Source of the DNA: an uncultured bacterium
GTDB lineage: Bacteria; Omnitrophota; Omnitrophia; Omnitrophales; Aquincolibacteriaceae
Direction of reading: 5' to 3'
Length of the DNA stretch: 64,000 nt
Assembly: GCA_964434115.1 (NCBI GenBank)
Contig: CAYSSX010000010.1
Span: 17,795-81,794, forward strand
Shown: in pieces, positions 3 to 53,899 of the stretch
Layout: the number at the start of each line of letters is the position of its first letter
Position numbering within the stretch: the first letter of the stretch is position 1
Notes under the pieces: model-generated
What the model saw: the letters and a program-made list of their open reading frames with translations, nothing else
Told to the model about the DNA's origin: nothing
Database searches by the model: none
Translations under genes and position numbers: made by a program

Positions 3-518
3 TCTTTTCAGGAGCGCGCGACCCGGGTGTCGCACCGCAACATGGGTCTCCTTGCGCACAAATGCGGGGGGAAAAAACTGGGGAAAATATGCGCCCTGAT
101 CGCGGGCGATGAAGCCCGCCATGAGCAGGCCTATCAGAATCTCTTCAAGGTTTGTCTGAAAGTCGATCCCAGTGAAGCGCTGGTCGCCATGGCCGATATG
201 CTGCTGTCAAAAGTGGTGATGCCAGCGAGACTCATGGATGACGGCTCTGGCCGTGATTTGTTTTCGGATTATTCGATTGTGGCCCAGAAGCTGGGAATTT
301 ATACGACCCGGGATTATGCGGAAATGCTGCTTTTTCTTGCGGAGACCTGGGAAATTGAGAAATTCAAAAATCTTTCGCCCGAAGCCGCGCAGGCGCAGGA
401 AAAAGTCATGAAGACCGCGGAGAAATACCTCCGCAAATCCGAGAGCCTTTCTGCAGCCATCCAGTCAATTGAAGTCAAACCCTTCTCCTGGGTCACCCCG
501 CAAAAAACCCACGCTTAA
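3..518 (+). CDS. Soluble diiron acyl-ACP desaturase (stearoyl-ACP desaturase family), C-terminal part. The 5' end lies outside the window.
   Basis: The frame is open from nt 3, and the GTG at 27 is only the ORF-caller start. The translation (SFQERATRVSHRN...ICALIAGDEARHEQAY...AMADMLLSKVVMPARLMDDG...DYSIVAQKLGIYT) aligns with the C-terminal half of plant and mycobacterial DesA-type acyl-ACP desaturases (FQERATFISHGNTARLA...IAADEKRHE...). The TAA at 516-518 overlaps the stop of the convergent giant gene. Confidence 0.8.
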   Translation, partial: SFQERATRVSHRNMGLLAHKCGGKKLGKICALIAGDEARHEQAYQNLFKVCLKVDPSEALVAMADMLLSKVVMPARLMDDGSGRDLFSDYSIVAQKLGIYTTRDYAEMLLFLAETWEIEKFKNLSPEAAQAQEKVMKTAEKYLRKSESLSAAIQSIEVKPFSWVTPQKTHA

Positions 519-28174: not shown

Positions 28175-28188
28175 ACGCCTCCCATATA

Positions 28189-28724: not shown

Positions 28725-31700
28725 ATGAAAAAAAATCTGCCTCTTAAAATCATGGCCGCTTTCACGGCGATTTCCCTGATGACAGATCCGGGAAACGTCT
28801 ATGCCGCCACCGGTCTGCCCAAAGCAGCTTCTTCCCCAGCAAAAGCTCCCGAAATTTCAGAAACTGCCGGCCAAATGGAAGATTTTTTTCAGGGAACTTC
28901 CGCAAAAACTATTCTCTACATTCAGGACGCCCATGACTCGCTTGAGGCGCAGAAAAACATCGCGTCCCTGATTTCTCAATTCACCGAAAAGGACGGGGTC
29001 AAAACTGTTTTTGAAGAAGGGTATGAAGGCCCGGTTCCGACAGACCGCTTTTTCGGGTTCATACCCGCCTCTGAAATCCGGGAAAAGGTTTCCGGTTTTC
29101 TTTTGGACAAGCTCCGGATCGGGGGCGCGGAATATGCCCATATCAATCGGAAGACAGACTTCAAGCTCATCGGCGCGGACAATCTGGACAAATACAAAAA
29201 AAACATTGAGGCCTTCCGCGCGGCAGCCAAAGAAAATCAAGTCATTGCCCGCGATCTTGACGCCATCCTTACGGAAATCGAGTCCCTGGCGAGTCAGCGC
29301 TTTCCCAAGTCCTTCCGCGAATGGGTGAAACTACGCGACAAATACGACTGCGCGGCGGTTGATCTTCTAGACTACTTAAAGCGCACAAGAAAAATCCTTG
29401 AGACTTCTCCCTCCGGCCTTGCCGGCGTTCCGGAAAAAATTCCGGCCATCGAACTTTTACTTAGGGCTTCGGCTTCGGATCAGAATGAAACCCTGACCAC
29501 TCAAGCCAAAACCATTACCCCTCAAGCCCTGTTTCAGGATCTCGCAGCTTTGGATACCCTGACCGCAGAACGGTTCCTGACCGCGGAAGGAGACCGCCGG
29601 ATTTTTCACTACCGCGAAGCTTTGCATCTTCTGAAGCGCCTTAATCAAATGGAGGTCACGCCGGCCGAGTACGCGGCCTCTCAAAAAATGATTACCGGGC
29701 TCAACACCCGGGAACTGGCCGACTTTATCGCACGCGAATCCAAAAAGTCCCTGGTTCTTTCCAAGGCATGGGAAAACAGCATTCAAAAAGCCTCAGCGTT
29801 TTATGAATTGGCAAAGCAGCGTGACGAAGCCATTGAGAAAACACTTTCGGACTTCCTTCAGCAGCCGGATGAAACCACCGCCGTCCTCGTCTACGGCGGA
29901 TTTCACAAGGCCAACATTCTGTCGATTTTTCAAAAACTGGGCGTTTCCTACGGCATCATCACCCCGAAAATTTCAGGCCCGGACCCCGTTCATGAACGGT
30001 ATTACAAGGAACTCATGGCCGTGGGCCTGCATGACTATGAAAAAACCGTTCTCCCCGCCGCGGGAACTGCCGCACGGGCCACACGACCGCCATCTCTGTT
30101 TGTGGAAACTTTTGGCGAGGCCTCAATCCAGTCGCTTTACCGGACGGTTGAACAAAACCCGGATACGCCGCTTGAACTTCTTGAACGCGAAGTCCCAAGG
30201 TCAGAACTTCGCTCGGAAGCCAGCCCATCGGCAAATCTGATTGCCGCGGATTCAGCGCTTGCGGCCTTCGGCCGAGGTTTAGGCGTCAACTTTAATGTTC
30301 CCGAATCAGCGCTGCGAAACGGTTACTGGCAATACGAAATCAATCCGCTGCCAGCGGAAAGAAAAGTCATTCACAAGCGCATGATTCCGGCCTATAAAAA
30401 CGGCAGTGAACAGCTGCCCACCCATTTGCGTTTAATTTTCAAAGACCGCCAGCCGCTTCTTATTGTCTCTGACGGTATTGCCTGGGGCCAAATCCCTGAA
30501 GACATTCGATCGGCCAATGAAAAGGCCTTCATTGCCCGGTTCGCAGGCGTTTACAAACACCTTTCTCCGGGCAAGGCTCAGAAAAAAGGACGCGAAGAAT
30601 TCTTAAGATCCATTTCAAAAAAACAAATTGCTCTTGGGTTTTCCCTTGTACCCGAAGAAGCCCAGCATCCTTTCTTACTGGCCCAGAGATGGTTCGAAGC
30701 ACAAACCCAATCAGTCGGTACGTACTCTACACAGTTCTTTGATGTGACCAAACCCGAAGACCTGCAGTCCCCCATCCTCACCTTTGAGGGTGTCTACAAA
30801 CCCTACACGGTGAGCAGTCATCTCTTCAGGTCAGGGATCCGTCCTGGGAAAAATTCCCTGGTTTATGTTTTAGGATCAGGGTCGGGCGCGGATGCTCTCC
30901 GCGCCGCGGAAAAGGCCAAAGGCCAGATCCGGATTGTGGCCTCCGACATTGATTCTTTGGCCGCTGAAAACACCCGCTACAACGCTGCACGAAGCCCTTA
31001 CAGTGCAGTCATTGAAGTCCACCGGGCAGATCTTTTTAATATCCCCGGACGGCCGGAAGGTGAACGGGCTGATCATATTTACTTCAACCCTCCCTTGAGC
31101 ATGAATGCAGCGGACGGAAACCTTGCCACGGCAGATGAAGGCATGCGTGTCCTCACCCGCTTCCTGACCGAAGCACCGGATCATCTGAAAGAGACGGGCA
31201 CACTTGAACTCACTTATACCGAGACGCCTGAATTTCTTCATAAAGTTTATTCCCTCGGCTGGGAGCCAGCACTGATTGAGGGGCTTCATCTTTCACGTAA
31301 ACATTTTCCGAACAACCGTTCAGACTATGTCCGCTTCACACTTCGCCGCATGTCCACCAGCCGGACAGCGGAGCTGCAAGAGGTTGTGTCGGATTGGGCA
31401 AAACTGATTCCCCTGCAGAAAAAAACCCGGGGAGGGCCCAATCCCTTTACCGCGTCAGACCTGGCACTGCTGAAAGCCTTGAAAGGAAAGTATTCGGCAT
31501 CCCAGGATTTCACGGGCAGGCTTATTTCAAAAACGCTCTATGCGCTTGAAAAAATTTCACAGGGTCTTACACCGCTTCGTCCCGAAGACGACAAACGCTT
31601 CAACCTGAATTATCCGCAGACGCTTCCCGTCCCCGGCCAGGTTTACCAGCATTCCCAGCGCCAGGAGCTCACGGTCCAAGTCACGCGCCTTGAAAGCAAC

Positions 31701-34700
31701 GGCTCTTTTAATATTCAGTCTTTTCAAGACGGACGGTCTCAAGGCCCTGAACAAATAGTTCCCGAAGAACAAACAGAGGCTTTCCTTCGGGAATTTGCTC
31801 CGGTCCGCAGCGAACTGCGCATGGTGTCTTCTTTTGAAATGGAGCTGGCCTTCGGAGATCTTGCCAAGACTCCTACTTTAAGCGGCGGAAGAAACGATGA
31901 CTTCCTTTACGAGAACGGGAAGAAAGTTGCTGTCATTATGCCTTGGTCGAAATTTATTTACCGGGCGCTGGATTCGGACGGGCGCGAAATTCCCGACCGT
32001 ATTTACAAAATCACTCATTACGCGTCCGAAAACGAAACGCTTTTTGAGGAAGCCAAAAAGATTTTCGCTCTACAGACTCCTGGCGTTTCCAAATTGCAGC
32101 GCATCGGGACGCTGAAAAGCGGCGGCATGTGGGTGGAACTCAAAGGCATTGCTTCAGCACGTTCCATGGACCGCGAAATTTTCGGCAGAACGCCCCGGCT
32201 TTTCAATGTCCTGATCCGGGCCGGAGAGCTGTTAAAAGGTATTCATGAACGCGGGATCGTTCACGGCGATATCAAGCCGGAAAACCTTTTGATCAATAAC
32301 GCCCAGGAACTCGAATGGATTGATTTCGGCGGCAATTTCACACGCGGTTATGTGGCTCTGGATGAGGAAAAGAACCCGATCGAAGACAAAACTTCCCCGG
32401 ACGTGGATGTTTACAGTTTCATCATGATCATTGCGCACCTTTTGGATCATCAGATTCAGGCACAGTCTCCGGAAATCGGCAAAACTCTGCGCCGCATGCG
32501 GGACGAATACCTTCACCTCATTCTCAAGGACTGGACCTTTCAGCGTTTTGAAGAACTGCTTCAGATCGGGGTATGGACAGAGAAGCTGACCCCGCTTCCC
32601 CGTAAAAAATGGCCGAAAGACATGTCGGAAATCACTGAAAAATTAAAACACGATCTTCAGGAACTGTCGGAAAACCATCCTGAATTGTTCACAACCGCGG
32701 TTGAAGAAGAAAAGAAGCTGATTCACGCAAGCGTTCATTCGTCCGAAACCAGGGACACCGCACAGAAACTCAAGCAGCTTCTCGACACTCTTCAGCGTGA
32801 CGGCGCGCTTCACCCCGGGAAAATTGCGGTCACGGATTTGAGCCGGGGCGCGGTCGCTCCCGCGTTCAAAGAACAGGTCGAGGCCTTTTCTCATCAAAAA
32901 GAAATCAGCATTGTCATGGAAGGGGCTTATCTTGACGATTGCTGCCGGCAGGCCTCCTGGACGCTTCTCGAGTATGCCCGGAACAATCCCGAAAAAAATC
33001 TGAACCTCCACTTCCCCGTCGACTTGATCGCGTACCCTCATGACTTTCTCGCTGAATCCGATTCAAAAGAAAAAATCAGCGCGCTGCTCTTTAACCTTGA
33101 GGCAGACGCGGCGGGCCTTTCTTACGAAGTCTTCGTGGACGGTGTAAAAACTGAAAGCACTGATGCGCCAGCCGGCCCCCAGGAGCCGGTTCGCGTGAAA
33201 CTTTACCTGTGGTCTGATTCACTGCTCATGGCCCAGACCGTGACTGAATCCCTCAGGCCCGGTTCCGGGGACCAGAACACAGATTCCCGGTCAGAGTTGA
33301 GGCAGCCCGGGGAAACAAATCCCCTTATCCAAAATCTTTTTTTTGAAAAAGAAATCACGCCTGAAACGATTGCCGCGGCGGAAGCCCTGATTCCAAAACC
33401 CATTCTCGACAGACTGATCCGGGAAGGCTATGAGCTTCCTAAGGGATTCAAGACCCAAGGGGCTCCGGGAGCCGCCCGAAAATTGATTTTGGATATCCAA
33501 AAAGGCGCCGGATCTCTGCAAATTATTTTAAAGGACAGGAAAAACCCCAGTTATGAATTTTTGAAAATTCCGCTCAGCGTCAAAGGGAAACAGCTCGGCC
33601 TCGGCTTCGGCCATTTGAATCAATTCAGTGAGGCAAAAACCGCTTATCCTGGGTACGACGACCCTGTCTTTGCCTGGTGGTTCCTGAAAAACCTCGTTCC
33701 TTTTGCAAAGCAAACAGGCTTTGACGATTTCGACCTTATTCAAGGCCCGCTTTCTGATGATGATTTAACAAAAGCCGGTTTTAAACTTCGCGACGAAGAG
33801 TCTGGCGTTCCTTTATGGATTTATGACCTAAAGCTGCGGGAATCCCGGTCTGAACTAAGGAACGACGGCGAGCGGTTGGAAATCCCGCTGGGAGAAACCC
33901 GGAAAGTGACCGTCGCGGCAGGCGAAAAAATTCTTGTGTCGGGTTTTGATCCGAAACGAAGAACCTCGGCACTGATTGAAATAAGATCCGTTGAAAAATC
34001 CCCGGGAAGAGAAATTGGGGGCCGTTTCAAAGCCCCGCGCCGTGAAGCGGAAATCCGCATCTCTGCACCGCCCGAAATTGTCATTTTGAGGGACACGGAA
34101 TGGCTGGAGTTTCTTTCGGACCACGAAAACCCGGACGCGTCCGTCAACATTTTTGGGCATTGGAACCGTCCGGCACTTTGGGCACTCCGGGACAAACTGA
34201 TCGCGAGGAGCTTTGGCAGGCGCTTTATGAGCTGGCGCGCGTATCTTCCGGAAGAGAGAAAAGTCTACCTCATGGACCTCAATACCCGGGCCCGGGTCGA
34301 GATTGAAATAACGAATACGGATATCGAAAAAAATGAGGCGGACCTGATCCTTCGTCCCGTCGTGAGCGCAGAATTTGGAACAGGGTATTTCGTGCAGGCC
34401 TTTTCAAATTCGCAGCAGCCTGTCTCTGCTATCCGTTCTGAATTGAGCCGAGCTAAAATCAATGAGACAGAGCTCAGTGAAGTCAAAACGCACGCGCAGC
34501 GGGTGGCTGCTGATTTCGGTTTTCCATCCGAGTTCACTAGCTTTGCTGTCCTGGATAAAGTCCACGCGCCAGAAATCGATCCGGATTTGACGGCCTACCT
34601 TGTAAAACTCACAGTCCTTCTTCCCTCTTCCACGGAAACAGAAAAAGAATTTTTAATCGGTCTTGATCAAAACCGCCGGCTTGCGGCGGGTGCCTGGCTG

Positions 34701-40700: not shown

Positions 40701-43700
40701 CGGCAGTTCCTTCCCCCTGAAGCAAAACTCGTACTCGCGCCGGGCATGGAACCGGAAGCACGCATGACTTACTGGCCCAGCGTTCAGGGTTCGATCCGCT
40801 CCCGCGAAGAAGTCTTCGGAGGTCTGGATCATGAAGGGTTTGATGTGGCGCATATCCAGACCCCTGACGCTGCTCAGCGGCAGCTGAAGGAAGGAACGCC
40901 CATTCAATCCCTGGTGAATGAAAGGGGCCGGGTCCAATGGGTCTTTGAGGATAATGTTCAATCCACGGCCATTGTGTTAAGTGATCTGGTCATGCCCATC
41001 GGATCCACAAGAATGCTGATCCCGAAAAATCCGGACGATGTGGCCCAGCTTCAAAGACGGACTGACGGCACCATCGGTTTTCCGGAATCCGTGGAAGTCG
41101 AAACGGTAGAAACCCCGGGAGAAAGGTACCGCATCGCATTCGTTTACACGCACCTGAAACTCGAGGATTGGGTCCGGCCCGGCGCTGAAATCAAAGCCAG
41201 CGATCCGAGAACCCTCGGCACGATTGAGCGCCACCGCAAATACCCTTTTTCGCCGGTGGTCCCCCATCTGCACTTTGCGGTCATGCTTTTCAAAGAAAGT
41301 GAAATCGGAAAATACCCTTCGTTGAATTATGATTTGCTCAACAGCAAACTCGGCCCTAATAAAACAGTGCTCTATGTCAACCCGCTCAGTCTTTTGGATG
41401 CGGCCCAGCGCACGGACCTTTTTGTGGAGGGCGATGCTGCCCGTCCGGGTTTTCGCTCCGCGGCGATCCAAGCCCTTGATCCCAATGCTTTAAAATCCGT
41501 GCGTGCCCGGCTGGCGCACACCCTGCTCGGTATTCCAGTCTGGACAGCCGCGTCACCCGCTCAGCTCTCTGAAGAAATGCAGCAAAGCGACCTCGTGATT
41601 CATCAAACACCGGCAGGCTGGGAAATTTTGTTGAGCGGCCTGATGAAAGACAAACTTCTTCATTTGAAAACAACTGCCGCGGACGAAGACGAACTCATCC
41701 AGCTCATCGAGGCTATGGATCTTCAGCTCAGGCGCCCCAAACATGACGCCCTCGGTTTGTCGATGAAAGAAACCAAAACCATGACGCCTTCCGAAACCGT
41801 GGAAGCGATCCGGAGCATGGCCTCGCGGGAAGAAATCAAGGATCATCATGACAGTGCTTTCATTGATGTGGTTCATCCGGATTTCGCACTGGTCAACATC
41901 GGTTACGGCGTGCACGCCGGCCTTCTGACGCCTTCGGATTCAAAAGGCTTCAACACGGATACGAGAATCTTCTTTTTCAGGATTCATTACCGTCCGGACC
42001 GGGAAATTCACGGACAGAAAATCCCTGAATACCTCGTCATCAAACCTCCTTATCTGGTGGAAGATCCTTCTGTACAGAAAGCCGGGGCCGGCGATCTTTC
42101 AAAAATGGAACCCGGTCTTTATACGGATTTAATTTCGCTCGCCCGTTTTCTTTTGGCGGGAGGATTCCCGGAAAACACAAAGATCCGTGTGGATGAATTC
42201 GACAATTTTCCGAATATTCTCGGGACTCTGGCCCTGCATGAAGAGGATGGAGCCCTGCCTCTCGCAAGACTTTCGGCCCTTCCCACAGAGCTTGCGCGTT
42301 CTGAATTAAGAGCTGCGGGGGAAACCTCGGAAGCCGCGGATCAAAAAGAAAGCCTGCTTCCCTCGCTCTGGGCAGGCGCTCGATCCGCTTTTGGGAAGCG
42401 TGTTTTCAGTTATGAGGAGTTCACCGCCAAGGCTTTCCCTGTATCAAAAGCCGTTTTCCGCAGCCAGTTCGAACTTTTGGAAACCCTTGGACTTGCCAGG
42501 GTTGAGCGTGCAGAAGGCATCTCCGGAAGACCACTCCGGGTAAGACTCACACGCGCTGCGGAAAAGTGGACAGCAGACAAACGGCGCATCCATGAAGAGG
42601 AACTCGATTTTCTGCTGCACCAATACAGCCGTCCGGGAGACGAGGAAATTATACGTCCCCAAGTGGCACGCGTGCTTTCGGGAGAACAGCTTTTTAAACT
42701 GCCGGTTCAAGCAGACTCTTATGAAAAACAGGAAATTGACATGTCCAGGGATGACTATTTCTTCCCTGGCCTTGTGATTACTTTCAGAACCCTCAGGAAT
42801 TATTTCGGCAAAGAATATGTCAAGGCCTCCGCTCTTGCAGAACTTCTCAATAAAAACGACGACAAGGGCCGGGCTCTTCGAAAATGGGTGGAAGATCTTG
42901 AAAAACTCGGCCTTCTCGAAACCTCCCGCAAAGGCGCAACGGGAAGCGTTTGGGTACGCCTGCGGCAAGACCTTGACAGTATCAAGGCCGCCAAAATCGA
43001 GCAGGTTCTTCTTGAGTCCTCAAAAACCAAAGCGGATCCTTCTCTTTCCTTCAAAATCCGGAACATTCTGGAAGACCGCGCAGCTCCCGTTGATCAGCAT
43101 AAATCAGCCGTAACAACTCCGCCGGCAAAGGTTCTGGGGCAGTGGAAGCTGACACTGCCGACACTCGTCCGGGCGATTGAGGAAGAAGAACTAGCTCAGC
43201 AGAGCCAGGGGATTCAGGAGCCTTCTGTCCGCTTGAATCAGGTCGCAAAACGACTCAATGTTAACATCACGGCTTTTCATCAAAGTATTCTACAAAACTA
43301 TGTCGATTTGAGGCGGCTTGGTATCCAAGGCCTGGCCCTGGGGCTACCCGTAGACAGCTCAACAACTCCCGAACCCCGAAAAAGGAATCCTCTGGATCTG
43401 GAAAAAGCCCGTCCCGTTTTTGAGCAGTTGATCCGCTCCGCTGTACAGCGCCTGCGCGGCACAGACCCGGAGTTTGCTGAAATTCCCATCAGAACTTCCC
43501 TTCTGGCTTATGAGCTCGGACTCAGTGACACAGGGCTTCGGGATCCGCTGAAGGAGCTCAGCCTTCTTCCGCTCTTGGAAGAGCTGGGGGTCTTTTCATT
43601 CAAGCCTTCAACACCCGCGCTGGAAAATCAGACCCGGGAATTCCTGAAATCCTTAAATCTGCAAGACACCCAGGAGCTGGTCGATTTCACAATCGGGAAA

Positions 43701-46700
43701 TCAGGCACTCGAAGAAAAGCGCCTTCAAAAGATCCTTCCTTTGATACAGTGCAGCGGGTCTTGGACAAATGGATCAACGAGCAGGATATCCGCCGAAAGC
43801 AGCGCCGCAGAGACTATGTGGAGGCTCTTCAGCGCCAGGCCGTGGAGGATTACGAGGAAGCTCTTCCGGCTTCAGCCGGGCTGGACGAAAAGAAAAAAGC
43901 GCTGCGAGCTCTTTTCCCCGGCCACCCAGCACTCCTGGAAGAAGCGGGACTGGATCCCGCCGCTCAAAAACCCCTGGATGAATATCTGATACCCGCAGGC
44001 GTCCGGACAAATTTTGAAGGCTATCTCCGTGACTTCAGAAGCGGGTTCCTTAACGAGCTGGGTGTATTGAAACTGCATACCAAAATTAACTTTCAGATTC
44101 TTATGGCCGCAGTTGAAGCGCGTGACAGAACAGCTGCCGCTGATGAAATTAAAGCCGAAAGATTCACGGGTTTTGGTGTTTCAAGTTTTGAAGGTGTCAT
44201 GCAGAAGGCTAAGAAAATGAAGACACTCCAGTCCTTTTGGAGTGCGTGGGATTTGGCTGACCAGTACCCTCCTCTTGGCGGCGAAATCATCAACGAGCTT
44301 AAAACCCTCGACCGTTTTTATGGAAACCGTTCCGAGCTCCGCAGCATGAATGAAGCCGCTCTGAAAGAGACTCTCAAAAAGAGCACTGATCTTATGACCT
44401 GGTTCCAGGCCCTTGGAAATTTCGAACCCGAAGACCTGAATCAAAAAATACAAATCACGCTTCAGATCTCAAGGGGCATTCAATTGAAAATGCCGATGCT
44501 TCGCTCCCTGCTGACAGATCCTGAATTTAAAGCATCCGCGCACCGCTTCATCGCAGCCTGGATTTATAACCTCTCCGTTGTTTACGGTACCGGTTTTGCT
44601 GCCGCCGGCGTGGAAGGCGAACCCGATCTTGTCGACATCAAGCTCCTTGAAGACCTCCTGACCTCGGGGGATTTGTCCAGCATCCGCGAATCCCTGGGTA
44701 AAGGGCCGGAGAATCCTCTCGGTATCCGTAATTACGCTAACGCGGGGCGCGAAGTGGTCATCAAGCGGCTTAATGAGCTCACGGATCAGGAAAAAGAAAT
44801 CACGCCCACGGCTATGGACATCAGACTTCAGACCGAAGTCGCTGGAGCTTATCTTGGTGTTGACGTGGGCGGAGGCTCCGCCAAGTGGGCGGTCATCAAA
44901 GACGGACAAATTCTTTCCCTGCCCGCGGAATTAAAGAGCACGACCACTCTTTTACTGAACACGGCCGGAGATCCTGTCAAAGAAACCGCGGCGGAATACG
45001 TAACGCGTCTCACAGCTCATGCTCAGAAAATTCTCGCTTATGTCGGCCAAACCTACGGCATTGAAAAATTTGACGGCGTGGGGATCGACATCCCCGGTGC
45101 TGCGGACTTTGAAAGCAACCGCATGGTGACGCTGGGCCAGATTCCGGTGAAGAAAGAATGGAATCAGGGGGATGTGGAATGGGCGGGGCGGGAAATTCCC
45201 CTTCAAATGGCGGCGGCACTCGATCTTGATTCAGGGCATGTCAAAATCCGCAACGACATGGATGGTGTTCTTCCCGGGGTCGCATCGGTGCTGGCTCAGG
45301 CCAAACCGGATTTCTGGACAGAAACTCAGGGGAACTTCGGCTTTGATTGGATGGGCACCGGCCACGGTAACCAGTATGCTGTGGGCGGCGTTCCGATGAA
45401 CGCTCCGACAGAGTCCGGACACATGATGTTTGAATTCGGAAAACCCGGCAAAGGAATCTTCGACACCGAGGCCTACACAAGTATTCCGAGCATGCTGGCC
45501 TATGCCCGCGCACTCGTTCAACAAAAAGGCATTACCTGGCATGAAATCTCAAGCGATCAGCTGAAGCCCTTGGCAGATCAAGCATTCTATGAGGGTGCCA
45601 ACTCCGTAGAATTATCCAAAAAAGAAATCGCTCTTCGAGTTTTCGACCGCTTTGCTGAAAAATACGCGGCCAACCTTGCGCAGCGTTACACCCTTGCCCG
45701 GGGAAGCGTCTACGGCAATGCGGCCGACGTTCTTTTGGGCGGCGGCATTGCCCGCGGACAAACCGGCGCACTTTTAAAAGACCTCACAATGGAAAAGCTA
45801 AAAGCCTATGGTCTGGAAAGCGCCATTCGCATTACCGTGATTCAGGACGATGACATCCGCGCGGCCGGTCTTGATCCTGATGATGTCGGGCCTGTCGGGT
45901 CAGCTTATTTTATTCAAAGTATTCTGGCCAATCAACCGCCGGCTCCAAACGGCCGGGACTTTGAACTCGGGGGCATTTCTCAGGGCACAAATGACACTGA
46001 AATCAATACCGCTTCAAAACGTCTTCTCGAACTCATGTCCGGCAAAGCGGTTTCCTGGATCCAGCCCGGAATACCCGGTGGTGAGAGTGAACGTCGTACG
46101 GTCATCCTTTCGGATGAGAGCGAATACTTTCAGTGGCGCACAACCCCGGATCAAAAACCTCTCCGGGCGGATCTCCACTTCCACAGCCGTCCCGCGGAGG
46201 AAGAAGTCCGGGCCTTCCCGAATCTTGAAAAGCTTCAGGCTGGCGACCCCGAACTGGCCGCTCTCACCTCCGACTTCGGAAAAATTTCCGGAAATTTTTT
46301 CAAAGCTCCCGATGGAGAGATCGTGTTTATCGTGAGCGTTGTACAGACCGGTGAAAACTGGAGACTTCTCGAAAGAACCACCAAGAACCGATATGACCCT
46401 CACCGGGGCTCAAGTGAGCGCCCTGAAGGAAACCGTTACAGCTGGTATGGAGCGCTTATCGCGTCCTTGGAAGACGCGCTTCGTGAAATGGGCATTCACA
46501 AAATCGCGGTCCTTTCCTCGGACGGCGTCAAAGAAATCCGTGACATCAGCGGCATCAAAATTCAAGACCCGATCACACAAAAAATGTACGGTAAGCCCGG
46601 CCCAGGCTACAGCGCAGACAGGATCACGCTGACCGCACCCGGGGAAACGCATGAGCTTCAAGTCTGGGTCAAGCCGCTTGGCAGCGAAACGCGTTCTGAA

Positions 46701-47210
46701 CTCAGGCAAAGTGAACGCACGGATACTTCCCTTCAAAAAGGAACACTGCTCATCAATGCGGACATGCTTGCCGGTTTATCCCCAGCCCAGGCTGATGAAC
46801 TTTTCTCAAGGCTCTACCTCAATAAAACAGATCTCCGTCTTGTGGTGTTCAATGAAAACGGACAGGTTCCTTTGACCCCGGCTTTCAACGCCATTCTCAA
46901 ACTTCCCAATGTTTTCAAGACTTCCGGAAGCGATTACAATGCGGCGGGAGAAAAATATGGTTTTCCGAACAGCGTGAGTGTTCTCTTTCTGAACCCGGGT
47001 GAAATTTTTCAACCCAAGAGTAACCTTTTAAAAGCCGTGCTGCTGAAAAAACGGGCGGGAGAAATTGAGTTCGCGAGACTGCTGGCTTTTAACGGCGGGA
47101 AACTACCTGAGGCTTCGGAAGAGAACGGGGTTTTTGATCCCCCTGCCAGCTTCCTTTCAGATCTTGACCAAAGAATCCTGAGCACGCTGGTGATCGCATA
47201 CTCCGCTTAA
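28725..47210 (+). CDS. Giant exported multi-enzyme protein, 6161 aa. It has a signal peptide, a shared N-terminal domain, four Rossmann/SAM-MTase-like cores, a Ser/Thr kinase-like core, a P-loop, an M23-like motif and an ASKHA sugar-kinase-like motif. There are 12 exact RSELR punctuation motifs plus one RSELSR variant.
   Basis: An 18.5 kb uninterrupted ORF. The N-terminus MKKNLPLKIMAAFTAISLMTDPGNVYA-ATG reads as a Sec signal. Domain motifs are listed as separate features. The gene ends 10 bp from the convergent CHASE2 kinase gene. Confidence 0.85.
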   Translation: MKKNLPLKIMAAFTAISLMTDPGNVYAATGLPKAASSPAKAPEISETAGQMEDFFQGTSAKTILYIQDAHDSLEAQKNIASLISQFTEKDGVKTVFEEGYEGPVPTDRFFGFIPASEIREKVSGFLLDKLRIGGAEYAHINRKTDFKLIGADNLDKYKKNIEAFRAAAKENQVIARDLDAILTEIESLASQRFPKSFREWVKLRDKYDCAAVDLLDYLKRTRKILETSPSGLAGVPEKIPAIELLLRASASDQNETLTTQAKTITPQALFQDLAALDTLTAERFLTAEGDRRIFHYREALHLLKRLNQMEVTPAEYAASQKMITGLNTRELADFIARESKKSLVLSKAWENSIQKASAFYELAKQRDEAIEKTLSDFLQQPDETTAVLVYGGFHKANILSIFQKLGVSYGIITPKISGPDPVHERYYKELMAVGLHDYEKTVLPAAGTAARATRPPSLFVETFGEASIQSLYRTVEQNPDTPLELLEREVPRSELRSEASPSANLIAADSALAAFGRGLGVNFNVPESALRNGYWQYEINPLPAERKVIHKRMIPAYKNGSEQLPTHLRLIFKDRQPLLIVSDGIAWGQIPEDIRSANEKAFIARFAGVYKHLSPGKAQKKGREEFLRSISKKQIALGFSLVPEEAQHPFLLAQRWFEAQTQSVGTYSTQFFDVTKPEDLQSPILTFEGVYKPYTVSSHLFRSGIRPGKNSLVYVLGSGSGADALRAAEKAKGQIRIVASDIDSLAAENTRYNAARSPYSAVIEVHRADLFNIPGRPEGERADHIYFNPPLSMNAADGNLATADEGMRVLTRFLTEAPDHLKETGTLELTYTETPEFLHKVYSLGWEPALIEGLHLSRKHFPNNRSDYVRFTLRRMSTSRTAELQEVVSDWAKLIPLQKKTRGGPNPFTASDLALLKALKGKYSASQDFTGRLISKTLYALEKISQGLTPLRPEDDKRFNLNYPQTLPVPGQVYQHSQRQELTVQVTRLESNGSFNIQSFQDGRSQGPEQIVPEEQTEAFLREFAPVRSELRMVSSFEMELAFGDLAKTPTLSGGRNDDFLYENGKKVAVIMPWSKFIYRALDSDGREIPDRIYKITHYASENETLFEEAKKIFALQTPGVSKLQRIGTLKSGGMWVELKGIASARSMDREIFGRTPRLFNVLIRAGELLKGIHERGIVHGDIKPENLLINNAQELEWIDFGGNFTRGYVALDEEKNPIEDKTSPDVDVYSFIMIIAHLLDHQIQAQSPEIGKTLRRMRDEYLHLILKDWTFQRFEELLQIGVWTEKLTPLPRKKWPKDMSEITEKLKHDLQELSENHPELFTTAVEEEKKLIHASVHSSETRDTAQKLKQLLDTLQRDGALHPGKIAVTDLSRGAVAPAFKEQVEAFSHQKEISIVMEGAYLDDCCRQASWTLLEYARNNPEKNLNLHFPVDLIAYPHDFLAESDSKEKISALLFNLEADAAGLSYEVFVDGVKTESTDAPAGPQEPVRVKLYLWSDSLLMAQTVTESLRPGSGDQNTDSRSELRQPGETNPLIQNLFFEKEITPETIAAAEALIPKPILDRLIREGYELPKGFKTQGAPGAARKLILDIQKGAGSLQIILKDRKNPSYEFLKIPLSVKGKQLGLGFGHLNQFSEAKTAYPGYDDPVFAWWFLKNLVPFAKQTGFDDFDLIQGPLSDDDLTKAGFKLRDEESGVPLWIYDLKLRESRSELRNDGERLEIPLGETRKVTVAAGEKILVSGFDPKRRTSALIEIRSVEKSPGREIGGRFKAPRREAEIRISAPPEIVILRDTEWLEFLSDHENPDASVNIFGHWNRPALWALRDKLIARSFGRRFMSWRAYLPEERKVYLMDLNTRARVEIEITNTDIEKNEADLILRPVVSAEFGTGYFVQAFSNSQQPVSAIRSELSRAKINETELSEVKTHAQRVAADFGFPSEFTSFAVLDKVHAPEIDPDLTAYLVKLTVLLPSSTETEKEFLIGLDQNRRLAAGAWLIPLNAQEKTFQMGQTRAFISQKGLMQRTLTLALKSGVINTWFSDTEYNRSDDAEDMYDRLMKDPELSIEEIQDQFKVKLRTRSELRALASNNADAPALLEAYPKLKQISDAWEEFLRNSEVDRNKFLNAYEGGAFVRSPFQWMNFMKENWNLNAQSRILDVGSGNGLAAMAFNILTGAQVTSIEIDPMRWVVLQNFLTFLKDQKGLEFPGVRFEQGDFLKYPLEGVDFIYFYYTHPVVHQARQGDAIVDRLENDLPQGAVFVSPGFYLEAEYSRMLLRRINREAYFAETSLHYREARLPPGNPLQHTRTAVVLTKRMDGAIPENPPRSELRAAEIPAELAGFNSNAPLWDFLKSFGIDPSKAKIEKLEGPWGRVRAAQHEVFGVLPGSELDAAVMESAFAVFDAQEIRERLRQNGHPEDSALQYLYLLTHENKPAAFVWAIPGAAFEPIYYYPLRGREQQALWPSAEDRGSDGAALTLPPETELFIRHFHKKDYGKNPVMQGGLPLSTLGQGLPGAQLRTFEEGLAFPTVFSLNHASSKGLVAAADLLINNGVLSVRDKTISEIGSGAGWIGTQMTLRGAREAHLYDLTLIKAANAMSTAKLFGAGERVHTYRSKSADILPSSDVYFWNIPDFSSSARDLSGSMPLDQKASIDVNNRIRIESVQKVFHELLNASPASASFLVRINPLDESAFRGMLKESGWEIHPKAAGLIQNPGRGGSYFLLRPELQGAEAKTRQAEDKLSPGLQNNPELLEAFREIGRDLLPLGNQMPVLLVEGMPGSGKSSRAKDLKAVLESEGRRAVIIHSESYLRNGRYDKPLKGFFGLLFRWLTRRPARELLAYAVSMFVNEGTVANWIQQIQEIQKEPEGSGFLKINGNPRDDVYIGPETILIIEGTLSSVLFASVPNVKKLFLDLSGSKIRSQFIRRALRETNLGPVYAFFKAWLMVPEIAVRFFRILSRNFDFILNLTDEKSPVLTRPHKLSGQPHAASPRSELRAEKSGQGKDRLFDPAQSPGELTAEEKEMIRQTQRTGLFRAGPLDETKPLWLFGEQDVMGPFIAGHLGDAAAPLIKPELYAGKKVLVVPGYGNLPFLLRAFGAREVTAMDLDPATIAWQKLKWKSGTEELQNWLFVTETSRPMIRSHHRSGWVSNLDQPPAGDVMDHMTFQTGNILNPIPLSGEKYDLVVIPYLFGFAHGLVTEDQWDKVLENLAKVLTPEGRVILVPGKMDLSKFRESDEKSQTENYQIWLNDLERKGWKVSHSKRYGFHNILGYEPVSAGFSILTPRSELRPEELGSFFQKVRDVFDHLPADFKHRNVLGYEFKTPQEVSEHLGGLGDEVSAAVAGIYHTRGFMMGSESIDPQDTGKPVHSRTFWIDPSNPNFRFAALLEVIKRGTEAVEGVYDQRDTEAAVNLLRQHLGEKPEKQALTAGLASFSSWRTLLDEVMVMDQRRISRSELRTKTQVEMNFDVPVEISGLAELIAKAPTIEALAQDPAQKIRRFPDGTYGNLYDAPFGHYPSYKILWQNGDLTVSHQLFKDHPLEIIYFSAAKQGSLFSLQIESGKIKKLYAYDPSRIEPFIFSPQSEGMPFKEEVIRWLKLKKPDDAAIKAAYARVEKDKADVWENLGVMMMMDQFDTSVTGKAPEMLASDEAALTARIKDMHHGIFWEQDLFQFTDGSWAFLDGKSGLVPNLEDSFRSRAHISIHNHPMMAPEEESGISRGDQGVFLKETSLKAEYVIADYGGAYKMTLSAEAPDPGAGEKILEGLQKHVTLTGVSRAWVHDTESGRWIKIEYLPEDAFQKLFLEHGLKIFTDVNLDWKSFGESKRSELRAPEQPEKSKEKAVKAPDELQVMRNSLRHFLRRQLAGRPIDPSKYVFISDFLPYRILAARNAEGKILGFAFGKKGNRRMHSLITEEGHEPSGFLHEKDEHGVRIITYVTEGDKNYKEDEFVLGRYGDVYRLKIEESGGTPTQQAIEYASWMPSYMLTKAQEVEALSKILGPQLYAGLRQFLPPEAKLVLAPGMEPEARMTYWPSVQGSIRSREEVFGGLDHEGFDVAHIQTPDAAQRQLKEGTPIQSLVNERGRVQWVFEDNVQSTAIVLSDLVMPIGSTRMLIPKNPDDVAQLQRRTDGTIGFPESVEVETVETPGERYRIAFVYTHLKLEDWVRPGAEIKASDPRTLGTIERHRKYPFSPVVPHLHFAVMLFKESEIGKYPSLNYDLLNSKLGPNKTVLYVNPLSLLDAAQRTDLFVEGDAARPGFRSAAIQALDPNALKSVRARLAHTLLGIPVWTAASPAQLSEEMQQSDLVIHQTPAGWEILLSGLMKDKLLHLKTTAADEDELIQLIEAMDLQLRRPKHDALGLSMKETKTMTPSETVEAIRSMASREEIKDHHDSAFIDVVHPDFALVNIGYGVHAGLLTPSDSKGFNTDTRIFFFRIHYRPDREIHGQKIPEYLVIKPPYLVEDPSVQKAGAGDLSKMEPGLYTDLISLARFLLAGGFPENTKIRVDEFDNFPNILGTLALHEEDGALPLARLSALPTELARSELRAAGETSEAADQKESLLPSLWAGARSAFGKRVFSYEEFTAKAFPVSKAVFRSQFELLETLGLARVERAEGISGRPLRVRLTRAAEKWTADKRRIHEEELDFLLHQYSRPGDEEIIRPQVARVLSGEQLFKLPVQADSYEKQEIDMSRDDYFFPGLVITFRTLRNYFGKEYVKASALAELLNKNDDKGRALRKWVEDLEKLGLLETSRKGATGSVWVRLRQDLDSIKAAKIEQVLLESSKTKADPSLSFKIRNILEDRAAPVDQHKSAVTTPPAKVLGQWKLTLPTLVRAIEEEELAQQSQGIQEPSVRLNQVAKRLNVNITAFHQSILQNYVDLRRLGIQGLALGLPVDSSTTPEPRKRNPLDLEKARPVFEQLIRSAVQRLRGTDPEFAEIPIRTSLLAYELGLSDTGLRDPLKELSLLPLLEELGVFSFKPSTPALENQTREFLKSLNLQDTQELVDFTIGKSGTRRKAPSKDPSFDTVQRVLDKWINEQDIRRKQRRRDYVEALQRQAVEDYEEALPASAGLDEKKKALRALFPGHPALLEEAGLDPAAQKPLDEYLIPAGVRTNFEGYLRDFRSGFLNELGVLKLHTKINFQILMAAVEARDRTAAADEIKAERFTGFGVSSFEGVMQKAKKMKTLQSFWSAWDLADQYPPLGGEIINELKTLDRFYGNRSELRSMNEAALKETLKKSTDLMTWFQALGNFEPEDLNQKIQITLQISRGIQLKMPMLRSLLTDPEFKASAHRFIAAWIYNLSVVYGTGFAAAGVEGEPDLVDIKLLEDLLTSGDLSSIRESLGKGPENPLGIRNYANAGREVVIKRLNELTDQEKEITPTAMDIRLQTEVAGAYLGVDVGGGSAKWAVIKDGQILSLPAELKSTTTLLLNTAGDPVKETAAEYVTRLTAHAQKILAYVGQTYGIEKFDGVGIDIPGAADFESNRMVTLGQIPVKKEWNQGDVEWAGREIPLQMAAALDLDSGHVKIRNDMDGVLPGVASVLAQAKPDFWTETQGNFGFDWMGTGHGNQYAVGGVPMNAPTESGHMMFEFGKPGKGIFDTEAYTSIPSMLAYARALVQQKGITWHEISSDQLKPLADQAFYEGANSVELSKKEIALRVFDRFAEKYAANLAQRYTLARGSVYGNAADVLLGGGIARGQTGALLKDLTMEKLKAYGLESAIRITVIQDDDIRAAGLDPDDVGPVGSAYFIQSILANQPPAPNGRDFELGGISQGTNDTEINTASKRLLELMSGKAVSWIQPGIPGGESERRTVILSDESEYFQWRTTPDQKPLRADLHFHSRPAEEEVRAFPNLEKLQAGDPELAALTSDFGKISGNFFKAPDGEIVFIVSVVQTGENWRLLERTTKNRYDPHRGSSERPEGNRYSWYGALIASLEDALREMGIHKIAVLSSDGVKEIRDISGIKIQDPITQKMYGKPGPGYSADRITLTAPGETHELQVWVKPLGSETRSELRQSERTDTSLQKGTLLINADMLAGLSPAQADELFSRLYLNKTDLRLVVFNENGQVPLTPAFNAILKLPNVFKTSGSDYNAAGEKYGFPNSVSVLFLNPGEIFQPKSNLLKAVLLKKRAGEIEFARLLAFNGGKLPEASEENGVFDPPASFLSDLDQRILSTLVIAYSA
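28890..29990 (+). other. Shared N-terminal domain of the two giant proteins (unknown function, possibly TIKI/TraB/ChaN-like)
   Basis: ILYIQDAHDSLEAQKNIASLI...VKTVFEEGYEGPVP...REKVSGFLLDKLRIGGAEYAHINRK...VLVYGGFHKANI aligns residue-by-residue with the 515..8914 product. The DAH / EEGYEG / GGFH(K) triplet loosely recalls the GTxH...E...GxxH motifs of the TIKI/TraB/GumN superfamily. This is inference only. Confidence 0.3.
30867..31094 (+). other. SAM-methyltransferase-like module 1 (HemK/N6-MTase-like with NPP motif)
   Basis: Motif I VLGSGSGADAL at 30867-30899 and motif IV FNPPL at 31083-31097. Confidence 0.5.
31880..32620 (+). other. Eukaryotic-like Ser/Thr protein kinase catalytic core
   Basis: Catalytic loop IVHGDIKPENLL (HGD at 32262-32270). 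DFG-like IDFGG (32322-32330). Upstream Lys-region candidate KKVAVIMPW. Downstream DVYSFIMIIAHLL fits the kinase subdomain IX position. Confidence 0.6.
35171..35500 (+). other. SAM-methyltransferase-like module 2
   Basis: Motif I RILDVGSGNGLAAMAFNILTGAQVTSIEIDP. It lies between RSELR sites 5 and 6 and is 248 aa, roughly one MTase fold. Confidence 0.5.
36383..36700 (+). other. Rossmann/MTase-like module 3
   Basis: ISEIGSGAGWIGTQMTLRGAREAHLYDL. Confidence 0.4.
37026..37400 (+). other. P-loop NTPase/kinase-like module
   Basis: Walker A VEGMPGSGKSSRAK (37026-37052). Downstream IIHSE and LIIEGT resemble nucleoside/nucleotide kinase Walker B. Confidence 0.5.
37900..38350 (+). other. Rossmann/MTase-like module 4
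   Basis: KVLVVPGYGNLPFLLRAFGAREVTAMDLDP...DLVVIPYL. It lies between RSELR sites 7 and 8 and is 293 aa. Confidence 0.4.
41150..41330 (+). other. Degenerate M23-peptidase (LytM)-like motif
   Basis: VRPGAEIKASDP...GTIERHRKYPFSPVVPHLHFAV (PHLHF at 41262-41276) resembles the M23 HxxxD ... HLHFE zinc-ligand signature. Confidence 0.35.
44856..45800 (+). other. ASKHA-fold (ROK/BadF/glucokinase-like) sugar-kinase-like module
   Basis: Phosphate-1 loop LGVDVGGGSAKWAVIKDGQ (44856-44888). Later GVGIDIPGA and LGGGIARG resemble phosphate-2 and adenosine motifs. Confidence 0.45.
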
Positions 47211-53886: not shown

Positions 53887-53899
53887 GCTTAAACTCTTC

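Follow-up and report, generated by a model that had tools for sequence, protein, structure and literature searches.

The hallmark peculiarity of Omnitrophota is their giant multi-enzyme proteins. They have been described as "Archaeovorins" by West-Roberts et al. in 2023 (bioRxiv 10.1101/2023.11.21.568195) and as a class of "multi-enzyme metabolic clusters" by Nielsen & Lui in 2026 (bioRxiv 10.64898/2026.06.07.730766). Their lengths range from 10,000 to 147,000 aa, and most have many transmembrane (TM) helices; methyltransferases, kinases, NUDIX, glycosyltransferase, HAD, radical SAM and ROK domains tile one chain behind an N-terminal signal peptide, and the N-terminal region "lacks identifiable domains" (10.1101/2023.11.21.568195; 10.64898/2026.06.07.730766). 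Cleavage has been suspected, with C39 and S8 peptidase domains as possible processors and cleavage points unknown (10.1101/2023.11.21.568195). Neither paper describes a recurrent motif, a TIKI-like head, a conserved C-terminal domain or cysteine depletion, and the words motif, linker and cleav- are absent from 10.64898/2026.06.07.730766.

Two other systems offer a comparison. In viral polyproteins of the picorna-, flavi- and potyvirus type, one ORF encodes mature proteins whose variable linkers bear a short, conserved recognition sequence; the protease is part of the same chain, and short spacer peptides are found between twin sites. The MARTX toxins of Vibrio and relatives have conserved ends around variable, shuffled effector modules that are exchanged as cassettes, and their cargo acts in the cytoplasm of another cell. 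They leave by type I secretion, have no N-terminal signal peptide and carry glycine-rich repeats at both ends; an in-built, InsP6-activated cysteine protease (CPD) cuts their inter-domain linkers after Leu. The MARTX effector RRSP is a site-specific endopeptidase of the TIKI superfamily (PMC6254334).

We analyzed a 6161-aa protein encoded in a 64-kb stretch of DNA, hereafter the window. It shares its phylum and a signal-peptide-like N-terminus with the Omnitrophota giants, and its family shows the same tiling of enzymes. It differs in having the signal peptide only, and it falls below the giant-protein catalogue's threshold of at least 10,000 aa. The preliminary description of this DNA called such a protein "not a known architecture", which is too strong given the giants described in the two papers above. 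The resemblance to MARTX toxins, which extends to the exchange of variable modules as cassettes between conserved ends, is one of function, not descent. The 6161-aa protein has no RTX/HemolysinCabind or C80 Pfam match, only 3 cysteines, no repeats and a predicted N-terminal signal peptide, and we infer that its linkers may be cut in an analogous way. Unlike viral polyproteins, it belongs to a family whose genes are chromosomal and bacterial, with several paralogues in each genome, and its chain carries an export signal; its candidate protease has a TIKI fold, whereas those of viral polyproteins have a chymotrypsin or papain fold.

Results

The 6161-aa gene is intact

The preliminary description had reported a single ORF of 18.5 kb, and this was borne out. 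A single ATG-initiated frame runs from 28725 to 47210 on the + strand (6161 aa plus stop) without interruption, and its GC content is uniform with that of its neighbors. No tandem or direct DNA repeats were found within 28725..47210. The protein is therefore not a repeat adhesin, the case against its own reading that the preliminary description had raised.

General caution with giant ORFs derived from metagenomes would suggest a chimera made in assembly or a pseudogene whose decayed sequence is read through as a single frame, and nothing specific to this locus points that way. Against it stand the open and repeat-free frame, the matching GC of neighboring genes, the colinear orthologues of 4537 and 2557 aa and the N-terminal domain common to more than 8000 clusters. 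In addition, 69 of 87 newly retrieved representatives, several of them 6000-6700 aa long, reach the C-terminal domain with the same C-terminal logic. We regard this explanation as effectively refuted. The gene is genuine and is a member of a large Omnitrophota protein family. A phage or mobile-element origin was also rejected, as 2.9 million viral contigs yielded no relative and the neighbors are ordinary chromosomal genes.

A pentapeptide marks the module junctions

Thirteen copies of RSELR and one of RSELS occur in the protein, where about 0.02 would be expected by chance. These 14 marks delimit 15 modules, and the general form R-x-E-h-R (here RSELR) is present at every module junction. The features of the protein are listed below.

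28725..28805, + strand: signal-peptide-like N-terminus, aa 1-27, MKKNLPLKIMAAFTAISLMTDPGNVYA (sequence reading and hydropathy scan)
28857..30053, + strand: M1 core, predicted TIKI/ChaN/erythromycin-esterase-fold hydrolase domain, aa ~45-443
30198..30212, + strand: RSELR site 1, aa 492
30213..31805, + strand: M2, 531 aa, predicted class I SAM methyltransferase with NPP motif (Pfam MTS, E 3.5e-7)
31806..31820, + strand: RSELR site 2, aa 1028
31821..33287, + strand: M3, 489 aa, protein-kinase-like with HGDIKPEN and DFG (Pfam Pkinase, E 2.3e-8; PDB matches)
33288..33302, + strand: RSELR site 3, aa 1522
33303..33845, + strand: M4, 181 aa, no recognizable family
33846..33860, + strand: RSELR site 4, aa 1708
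33861..34433, + strand: M5, 191 aa, no recognizable family, common to relatives P0143 and P0002
34434..34448, + strand: site 5, degenerate RSELS, aa 1904
34449..34943, + strand: M6, 165 aa, no recognizable family
34944..34958, + strand: RSELR site 6, aa 2074
34959..35678, + strand: M7, 240 aa, predicted class I SAM methyltransferase (Pfam PCMT / Methyltransf_31)
35679..35693, + strand: RSELR site 7, aa 2319
35694..37667, + strand: M8, 658 aa, GxGxG loop N-terminally, then P-loop kinase-like region with GMPGSGKSS (Pfam KTI12)
37668..37682, + strand: RSELR site 8, aa 2982
37683..38543, + strand: M9, 287 aa, predicted class I SAM methyltransferase (Pfam Methyltransf_25/11)
38544..38558, + strand: RSELR site 9, aa 3274
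38559..39047, + strand: M10, 163 aa, no recognizable family
39048..39062, + strand: RSELR site 10, aa 3442
39063..40157, + strand: M11, 365 aa, no recognizable family
40158..40172, + strand: RSELR site 11, aa 3812
40173..42296, + strand: M12, 708 aa, M23-type motifs by reading only
42297..42311, + strand: RSELR site 12, aa 4525
42312..44327, + strand: M13, 672 aa, no recognizable family, common to P0002
44328..44342, + strand: RSELR site 13, aa 5202
44343..46691, + strand: M14, 783 aa, orphan, ASKHA-like glycine loop by motif reading only
46692..46706, + strand: RSELR site 14, aa 5990
46707..47207, + strand: C-terminal domain, ~165-167 aa, HAD-like Rossmannoid fold, ending ...VIAYSA-COOH

Site 5 is taken as a module boundary because P0143 passes straight from M5 to M7. 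The codons of the marks vary synonymously: Ser draws on both of its codon families, Leu on six codons and Arg on four. This indicates that selection acts on the peptide and not on the DNA. A DNA-level origin as a repeat, a recombination site or an RNA element was rejected on the same variation, on the absence of DNA repeats and on the lack of an Rfam match.

The motif recurs in the family at large, with 280 copies of RSE[LVMI]R within 219.5 kaa; RSELR is the commonest 5-mer there (113 seen versus 0.63 expected). At 79 related loci plus the window, 403 motifs were counted in 224 kaa of family ORFs versus 34 in 327 kaa of all other ORFs, and nearly all of the 34 sit in truncated family fragments. 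Between orthologues whose modules are 60-77% identical, the pentapeptide is exact amid linkers that cannot be aligned, and its flanks are not conserved. The motif comes in flavors (RSELR, RAEVR, RSEAR, RPEAR and others) that are specific to a given protein, with a purity of 0.66 versus 0.49 when shuffled, and its second Arg is followed by Ser, Ala or Thr. In the literature searched, neither the RSELR motif nor the conserved termini were described, and nothing was found on Omnitrophota polyproteins.

The preliminary description had read the protein as beads on a string. The unrelated enzymes in one chain were confirmed, but the conserved pentapeptide punctuation and the two conserved caps, that is, the N- and C-terminal domains, had been missed. 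The scarcity of cysteine and a second family member in the window had gone unnoticed as well.

The punctuation and the two caps favor a processed polyprotein over one giant multi-enzyme machine. Our best reading, in which our confidence falls a little short of even, is a polyprotein exported through Sec that probably processes itself and sets free a batch of enzymes. The unfolded precursor would first be exported through Sec. The RSELR marks would then be cut, probably C-terminal to the second Arg and before the Ser, Ala or Thr, to give about 15 separate proteins, and the most economical candidate for the protease is the precursor's own N-terminal TIKI-like domain. The freed ATP- and SAM-dependent enzymes would finally act outside the cytoplasm of the producer, plausibly at the surface of a partner or prey cell or inside it.

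Alternatively, the chain may remain a giant unprocessed multi-enzyme protein, exported or tethered to the surface, in which R-x-E-h-R is structural and serves as a helix cap, a hinge or a docking motif for M1, the C-terminal domain or a scaffold. Some copies of the motif do lie within predicted helices: 19 of 141 proteins have one in the final helix of the C-terminal domain, and many relatives have one where the terminal hairpin of M1 begins. Helix-embedded copies are unusual for a pure linker cleavage site. Published work likewise treats Omnitrophota giants as possibly intact, membrane-associated assemblies. However, a strict pentapeptide amid unalignable linkers exceeds the needs of a hinge, and its flavor drifts as a unit in each protein, as expected of a recognition code. 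Moreover, 185 of 1157 segments between motifs fall short of 50 aa, a size that is poor for domains but common for the spacer peptides of polyproteins, and an invariant hydrolase active site heads every member. We consider an unprocessed chain rather unlikely.

Both termini carry conserved domains

M1, the N-terminal module of ~490 aa, has an alpha/beta core with a central parallel beta-sheet and flanking helices. Its AF2 model has a pLDDT of 85, and the top five Foldseek matches of the model are EreC and BcR135. Against clan profiles M1 gave no above-threshold Pfam or NCBIfam match, and a PDB profile search was empty; matches to Cofac_haem_bdg were sub-threshold in 3 of 23 members (best E 0.017; E 0.11 for the M1 of the window). 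The residues D68, H70, Q76, E98, E136, R366 and H394 are invariant, and the set D68-x-H70, E98 (+28), R366 and H394 (+28) is conserved at 99.7-100% in 291 sequences. This spacing mirrors that of the RRSP catalytic set, E3900-x-H3902, E3930 (+28), R4001 and H4030 (+29) (PMC6254334), except that M1 has Asp where RRSP has the first Glu. The counterparts in BcR135 are H85 and E113. In having a His-Glu pair, a second His, an acidic residue and an Arg, spaced as in RRSP and BcR135, M1 resembles the TIKI superfamily. It has a helical lid as do the Ere enzymes, with a larger insert (~220 aa), and it is placed after an export signal as are TIKI, ChaN and TraB. The model and the conserved residues identify M1 as a domain of the TIKI/ChaN/EreA/TraB fold with a complete catalytic set, for which hydrolytic activity is predicted. 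M1 is always N-terminal among family members, and we know of no TIKI, TraB, PrgY, ChaN, GumN or erythromycin-esterase member that heads a multi-kilodalton polyprotein.

Throughout the family, the C-terminal domain always closes the protein. Its terminus is [AS]-A-COOH, with the final Ala invariant in 141 of 141 relatives, and this Ala is the only invariant column in the alignment of the domain. The motif I position in the 6161-aa protein reads INAD and the DxD nucleophile is absent. A role as a catalytic HAD phosphatase was rejected, as no catalytic residue is conserved.

M1 is put forward as the protease because its superfamily includes the site-specific endopeptidases TIKI and RRSP. It could also be a non-peptidase, since EreC and BcR135, its nearest structural relatives with a helical lid, are esterases and ChaN binds haem. 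The marks might then be cut by a separate protease encoded elsewhere, be it trypsin-, subtilisin-, kexin-like or tail-specific. M1 would in that case be another hydrolase, for example an esterase that attacks the envelope of the target, or would serve in maturation, and the invariant terminal Ala may recruit a PDZ-type tail-specific protease. Besides the esterase matches and this terminus, several observations fit such an enzyme. Both paralogues in the window share the RSELR flavor, as a reader shared genome-wide would have it, and R-x-E-h-R followed by a small residue appears to resemble the P5-P1 site of an Arg-specific protease. There was also no clear covariation between motif flavor and M1 columns; the maximum, 0.27 bit, falls in the variable helical insert, and the comparison as a whole is confounded by phylogeny. 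Arguing the other way, no conserved accessory gene, whether a dedicated protease or a secretion system, was found within 10 kb on either side across the 79 loci, where only generic ABC ATPase and SDR clusters recur. The motif and M1 co-occur in one ORF wherever both ends are visible, and all catalytic residues of the peptidase-capable TIKI superfamily are invariant in M1. A separate protease is unlikely in our judgment, and self-processing by M1 remains the preferred proposal.

The cargo includes putative enzymes of unrelated families

Judged from motifs and profile matches, M2 to M14 appear to include three or four SAM-methyltransferases together with one protein kinase and one P-loop kinase; an M23 peptidase is possible, and the fold of seven further modules is not recognized. 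The calls for M2, M3, M7, M8 and M9 are above the cut-offs set by Pfam itself. Methyltransferases, as named in the preliminary description, were recovered in three modules, M2 (MTS, 30.4 bits versus a cut-off of 23), M7 (PCMT, 22.1 versus 20.3) and M9 (Methyltransf_11, 25.7 versus 21.2). Its Ser/Thr kinase core was recovered in M3, where the HGDIKPEN catalytic loop and DFG can be read; the Pkinase match scores 34.2 bits against a cut-off of 31.7 and spans only 33 residues, and residues 54-187 match the PDB kinases RIPK1 and PknE at E 1e-5. The Walker A motif GMPGSGKSS likewise falls in a KTI12-like P-loop region of M8 (27.5 bits, cut-off 22, E 2.8e-6), a module with a homologue in the relative P0100.

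Two other assignments fared less well. The motifs behind the M23-like call are present in M12 as HEGFD (aa 4036), YTHL (aa 4141) and PHLHF (aa 4180) and are conserved in P0143 and P0002, but M12 has no Pfam match even at E<=5 and no PDB sequence match. The ASKHA call rests on the glycine loop of M14, for which there was no Pfam, NCBIfam or PDB match and no homologue at E<=1e-5.

Composition points to export

The N-terminus (MKKNLPLKIMAAFTAISLMTDPGNVYA/ATG) shows a basic n-region, an h-region of ~11 residues and a VYA-A c-region, and a Kyte-Doolittle scan found no internal TM-grade hydrophobic segment. These readings agree with the signal peptide and the lack of TM helices predicted in the preliminary description. 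A signal-peptide-like N-terminus, with K/R plus a hydrophobic run, is present in 179 of 186 complete relatives. Cysteine accounts for 3 of the 6161 residues (0.05%) and for 0.14% of the family, versus 1.04% in non-family ORFs at the same loci and 0.86% in the remaining genes of the window. This is a depletion of about 7-fold for the family, with all other residues at similar frequencies. Cysteine depletion is typical of exported proteins. We infer from the sequence that the 6161-aa protein is exported through Sec; the depletion and the N-termini of the relatives lend independent support to the exported, effector-like reading proposed earlier.

The cargo weakens this reading, because kinases and methyltransferases need ATP and SAM and the periplasm has neither. 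Cargo of the radical-SAM, sigma-70 or SecA-like type in relatives also fits poorly to an exported-effector role. One may instead envisage a cytoplasmic polyprotein or a fusion of housekeeping-type enzymes, with the hydrophobic N-terminus as a membrane tether and the enzymes in the cytoplasm of the producer. The need for ATP and SAM and the sigma-70, SecA-like, radical-SAM, PGM and glycogen-synthase domains of relatives would suit this arrangement, yet the cysteine depletion amid otherwise normal composition is unexplained for cytoplasmic enzymes. In addition, a basic n-region followed by a short h-region would put the chain outside, and TIKI, ChaN, TraB and GumN domains are typically extracytoplasmic. 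Many giants have been read as membrane-anchored with cytoplasmic domains (10.64898/2026.06.07.730766), which speaks for the cytoplasmic arrangement; on balance we find it improbable, and export remains the preferred reading.

Whole modules are gained and lost in the family

Members share a layout of signal peptide, TIKI-like domain, variable cargo separated by R-x-E-h-R and C-terminal domain. The family comprises 8110 clusters at 50% identity (E<=1e-10). Named M1 homologues are all from Candidatus Omnitrophota/Omnitrophica except for three metagenome bins, deposited under the labels Verrucomicrobiae, Elusimicrobiota or "uncultured Planctomycetales". As far as can be seen from these sequences, the family is restricted to Omnitrophota, in keeping with the affinity suggested in the preliminary description. 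Over M1, identity to the closest locus, L001, is 74%. The window itself encodes another member, and the two genes together cover 42% of it.

515..8914, - strand: second family member, 2799 aa, with signal peptide, M1 domain, 7 RSELR sites, 1 RPELR and a C-terminal domain ending ...VIEMAA

The colinear orthologues P0143 and P0002 differ from the 6161-aa protein by whole modules that were gained or lost at the motif. Modules in the family have a median length of 309 aa, and module homology between proteins stops at a median of 11 aa from the motif. The cargo of relatives extends to amylase, GT4, NUDIX, HAD and ROK domains.

Discussion

Extended to the family, the proposal becomes that of a phylum-wide polyprotein system. 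Thousands of Sec-exported, cysteine-free precursors would be cut at R-x-E-h-R by their own TIKI-fold endopeptidase, with the HAD-fold domain and its terminal Ala as a completion or recognition signal, to release bespoke batches of enzymes that would work beyond the producer's own cytoplasm, at the surface of a host or prey cell or inside it. We offer this wider reading as a real possibility that is, on present evidence, appreciably less than an even bet.

The presence of R-x-E-h-R at module junctions provides a searchable candidate cleavage code with lineage-specific flavors. It is accompanied by a candidate for the protease, built into the chain and invariant in its active site, by a C-terminal cap that is conserved and by an amino-acid composition that bears the mark of export. 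With the motif, any such giant protein can be divided in silico into its functional units for structure prediction, and whether and where Omnitrophota giants are cut becomes directly testable through it. If the cleavage is real, bacteria would have a polyprotein strategy on a par with those seen in RNA viruses and in MARTX toxins, and would use it very widely. If the phylum-wide reading is true, R-x-E-h-R would be the first general cleavage code for Omnitrophota giants and the system a new mode of bulk effector production.

A recurrent pentapeptide divides the giant ORF into modules

The giant ORF runs as a single frame from an ATG start, and it contains 13 copies of RSELR and one of RSELS, which the preliminary description had missed. 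These sites, at residues 492, 1028, 1522, 1708, 1904, 2074, 2319, 2982, 3274, 3442, 3812, 4525, 5202 and 5990, split the protein into 15 modules (M1 to M15) of 163–783 aa each. Family residue frequencies predict about 0.02 occurrences by chance. Arg is encoded by four different codons across the copies, Leu by six and Ser by codons of both families; this synonymous variety indicates that the motif is kept at the protein level and not as a DNA element. The window holds a second family member, and the two ORFs together make up about 42% of it. The motif is absent from every other gene in the window.

Family members in the window
28725-47210, (+): giant ORF, 6161 aa
515-8914, (-): second family member, 2799 aa, with a signal peptide, a TIKI-like M1, seven RSELR and one RPELR, and a C-terminal domain ending VIEMAA

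Two of the RSELR copies in the second ORF form a twin 15 aa apart (4370-4414, (-)). Pfam recognised almost nothing in the cargo of this ORF, the sole match being weak and HAD-like.

The enzymes named in the preliminary description were partly borne out. Pfam matches above their own cut-offs were obtained for a HemK-type methyltransferase (methyltransferase small domain, MTS), a protein-kinase catalytic core, two further class I methyltransferases and a KTI12-like P-loop, in agreement with the proposed HemK-like, Ser/Thr kinase and Walker A modules; the kinase module also matched RIPK1 and PknE in the PDB. The M23-type motifs (HEGFD, YTHL and PHLHF) are real and kept in orthologues, while the M23 assignment itself found no backing in HMM or PDB sequence searches. 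The ASKHA assignment found no support either, and the module so named is without any detectable homologue at E<=1e-5. Seven of the 15 modules have no Pfam or NCBIfam match. The preliminary description had also raised a repeat adhesin or a chimeric ORF. Since neither tandem nor dispersed DNA repeats were found in the giant ORF, it is neither a repeat adhesin, which is ruled out, nor an obvious chimera; its GC content equals that of its neighbours.

The motif punctuates a large family of proteins

A homology search with the first 1526 aa of the giant ORF found 123 proteins that share only its first ~490 aa (M1) at 23–61% identity, most at 36–48%; those with a named source were almost all Candidatus Omnitrophota. 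When 1.84 billion cluster representatives were scanned in full by HMMER using an M1 profile, 9344 matched at E<=1e-3, of which 8110 passed E<=1e-10 and 5808 passed E<=1e-30. Among the matches listed, M1 was N-terminal in 150 of 150, in proteins of up to 6720 aa. The GTDB representative genomes contributed 159 relatives, several per genome, most of which extend past the 10-kb flank; the named ones are all Omnitrophota. No relative was found among 2.9 million viral contigs. A few relatives (the locus L009 on CAZUJQ010000124.1, and proteins P0007, P0079 and P0115) come from bins submitted under other names ('uncultured Planctomycetales', 'Verrucomicrobiae' or 'Elusimicrobiota'); either wrong binning or labelling of Omnitrophota contigs, or a slight reach of the family past the phylum, may explain them.

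The 219.5 kaa of family sequence contain 280 copies of RSE[LVMI]R. RSELR alone accounts for 113, where chance predicts 0.63, and ranks first among all 5-mers, above the conserved motifs of M1. The general form is R-x-E-h-R, with a flavour specific to each protein: single proteins carry 16 RSELR, 15 RAEVR, 8 RSEAR or 8 RPEAR, and the purity of position 4 within proteins is 0.66 versus 0.49 in shuffles (shuffle maximum 0.51). In the window and 79 further loci, 403 motifs were counted in the 224 kaa of ORFs bearing M1 or the C-terminal domain, compared with 34 in the 327 kaa of the remaining ORFs; nearly all of those 34 fall in fragments truncated at a locus edge or by a frameshift. The flanks are variable, with small residues before the motif and small or acidic ones after it. 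The median internal module is 309 aa long (interquartile range 161–531), and module homology between proteins ends a median of 11 aa from a motif. Segments shorter than 50 aa make up 185 of the 1157 between motifs, with a median of 30 aa.

The cargo downstream of M1 differs between relatives and includes amylase, GT4, NUDIX, HAD, ROK, radical SAM, PGM and glycogen synthase, and in further relatives PEP synthase, GNAT, WD40, M23, sigma-70 and SecA-like domains. Of the orthologues, P0143 (4537 aa) is the closest and matches the giant ORF colinearly at M1, M3, M5, M7, M8, M9, M12, part of M14, and M15, at 43–77% identity (60–77% leaving out the partial M14). M2, M4, M6, M10, M11 and M13 are missing from P0143, which brings others of its own, and a second orthologue, P0002, keeps another subset. 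Modules are thus exchanged as cassettes. At junctions shared between orthologues the pentapeptide is exact and the 10–20 residues on either side are unalignable, which is how a functional short linear motif delimiting evolutionary units would behave. We regard this motif-punctuated, capped architecture as real and family-wide with very little doubt.

A conserved head and a conserved tail

No Pfam or NCBIfam model covers M1, and its sole recurring Pfam match, below threshold, is to the ChaN family of the Tiki clan. A model built from a 23-sequence alignment (pLDDT 85, pTM 0.81) predicts an alpha/beta core interrupted by a helical insert of ~220 residues, for which the top five Foldseek matches were EreC and BcR135, all weak. 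The RRSP structure paper (PMC6254334) gives the active set of the superfamily as E3900-x-H3902, E3930, R4001 and H4030 in RRSP, with H85 and E113 in BcR135. Its counterpart in M1 is D68-x-H70, E98 (+28), R366 and H394 (+28), and among 291 family sequences D68 is conserved in 290/291, H70 and E98 in 291/291, R366 in 290/290 and H394 in 289/289. The modelled fold and the conserved catalytic set therefore predict M1 to be, almost certainly, an active hydrolase, in a superfamily with both site-specific endopeptidases (TIKI, RRSP) and esterases.

The last module, of ~165 aa, was homologous in 92 of the 143 C-termini tested and was found in every complete protein checked, always at the extreme end and always in an ORF starting with M1. 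It too is covered by no Pfam or NCBIfam model. Its predicted structure (pLDDT 91.7) is a HAD-like Rossmannoid, and the family alignment contains no conserved catalytic residue; the sole invariant position is the terminal Ala (141/141 proteins), preceded by Ala or Ser in 140/141.

Extra copies of R-x-E-h-R lie in structured parts of both domains. Many relatives carry one at the start of the terminal helical hairpin of M1, 30–40 aa before the first linker copy, and in 19 of 141 proteins the final helix of the C-terminal domain contains one, most commonly 17 aa before the C-terminus. The equivalents in the giant ORF are degenerate (aa ~463, nt ~30111; aa ~6146, nt ~47160). These copies could be pseudo-substrates or remnants of cleavage in cis.

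Signs of export

The N-terminus of the giant ORF, MKKNLPLKIMAAFTAISLMTDPGNVYA, has the basic, hydrophobic and small-residue order of a Sec signal peptide, and no other hydrophobic segment of transmembrane grade occurs in the protein. ORF reading and hydropathy hence upheld the earlier account of one long ORF with a signal-peptide-like start and no transmembrane helix. In 179 of 186 relatives with complete N-termini, the M1 core is preceded by basic residues and then a hydrophobic run free of charges. Cysteine is depleted: the giant ORF has 3 in 6161 aa (0.05%), and the mean is 0.14% in family ORFs, 1.04% in the other ORFs of the same loci and 0.86% in the window's other genes, with the remaining amino acids at similar frequency in family and other ORFs. 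Selective loss of Cys is expected where a protein is translocated in an unfolded state and functions beyond the reducing cytoplasm. From these signs we infer export.

Genes around the giant ORF

The divergent spacer upstream of the giant ORF has no sigma-70-like promoter match, and the 64-kb window contains no tRNA gene and no Rfam family above threshold.

Neighbouring genes in the window
27548-28192, (-): LexA-type repressor (LexA_DNA_bind and Peptidase_S24), divergent from the giant ORF across a 532-bp spacer
47220-49190, (-): CHASE2 sensor histidine kinase converging on the giant ORF, stop codons 9 bp apart
52201-55075: cluster of ORFs of 233, 343 and 398 aa without Pfam match, and a TPR protein
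55823-57895, (-): radical-SAM protein, 690 aa, adjoining the cluster

The other genes are ordinary for a Gram-negative chromosome (AcrB and OEP efflux, MscS, ABC-F ATPase, SDR, DeoC, OYE, DUF922, DUF3108).

Discussion

The observation in the preliminary description is partly confirmed and its interpretation partly supported, and the finding is more interesting than was realised there. Multi-enzyme giant proteins of Omnitrophota have been described (West-Roberts et al. 2023, bioRxiv 10.1101/2023.11.21.568195; Nielsen & Lui 2026, bioRxiv 10.64898/2026.06.07.730766). The former suspected cleavage, named C39 and S8 domains and stated that the cleavage points are unknown; the latter never mentions a motif, linkers or cleavage. 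Compared by their descriptions with those giants (>10 kaa), the giant ORF is a smaller relative with a signal peptide only. Our literature search, over 8 million papers, found nothing tying RSELR or polyproteins to Omnitrophota, and the punctuation code, the TIKI-fold head, the capped tail and the compositional export signature appear unreported. MARTX toxins and viral polyproteins resemble the proposed system in logic, not in descent; unlike MARTX, the giant ORF has no RTX repeats and no C80 protease, and it has a signal peptide.

Several points speak against the self-processing exported polyprotein proposed below. The nearest structures sharing the helical lid of M1 are esterases, a search for covariation of the motif with M1 gave no signal, the motif sometimes lies within helices (the last of the C-terminal domain and the start of the terminal hairpin of M1), and some relatives carry cargo odd for export, radical SAM and sigma-70 among them. 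Within 10 kb on either side of family genes in 79 loci, no accessory gene proved to be conserved; a self-contained system would look like this, though the finding is no proof of it.

As the most economical reading we propose a self-processing exported polyprotein, tentatively and at slightly less than an even chance. Sec would export the precursor, its own head domain M1 would cut it at the R-x-E-h-R marks, and the cuts would free a set of individual enzymes. The C-terminal domain, last out of the translocon, may serve as a completion signal, or its invariant terminus may draw in a reader. The data show the architecture, the selection on the motif, the fold and active site of M1, the loss of cysteine and the evolution by cassettes; from them we infer export, cleavage, which protease cuts and where the ATP- and SAM-dependent cargo would work. 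Twin sites, if cut, would free short spacer peptides.
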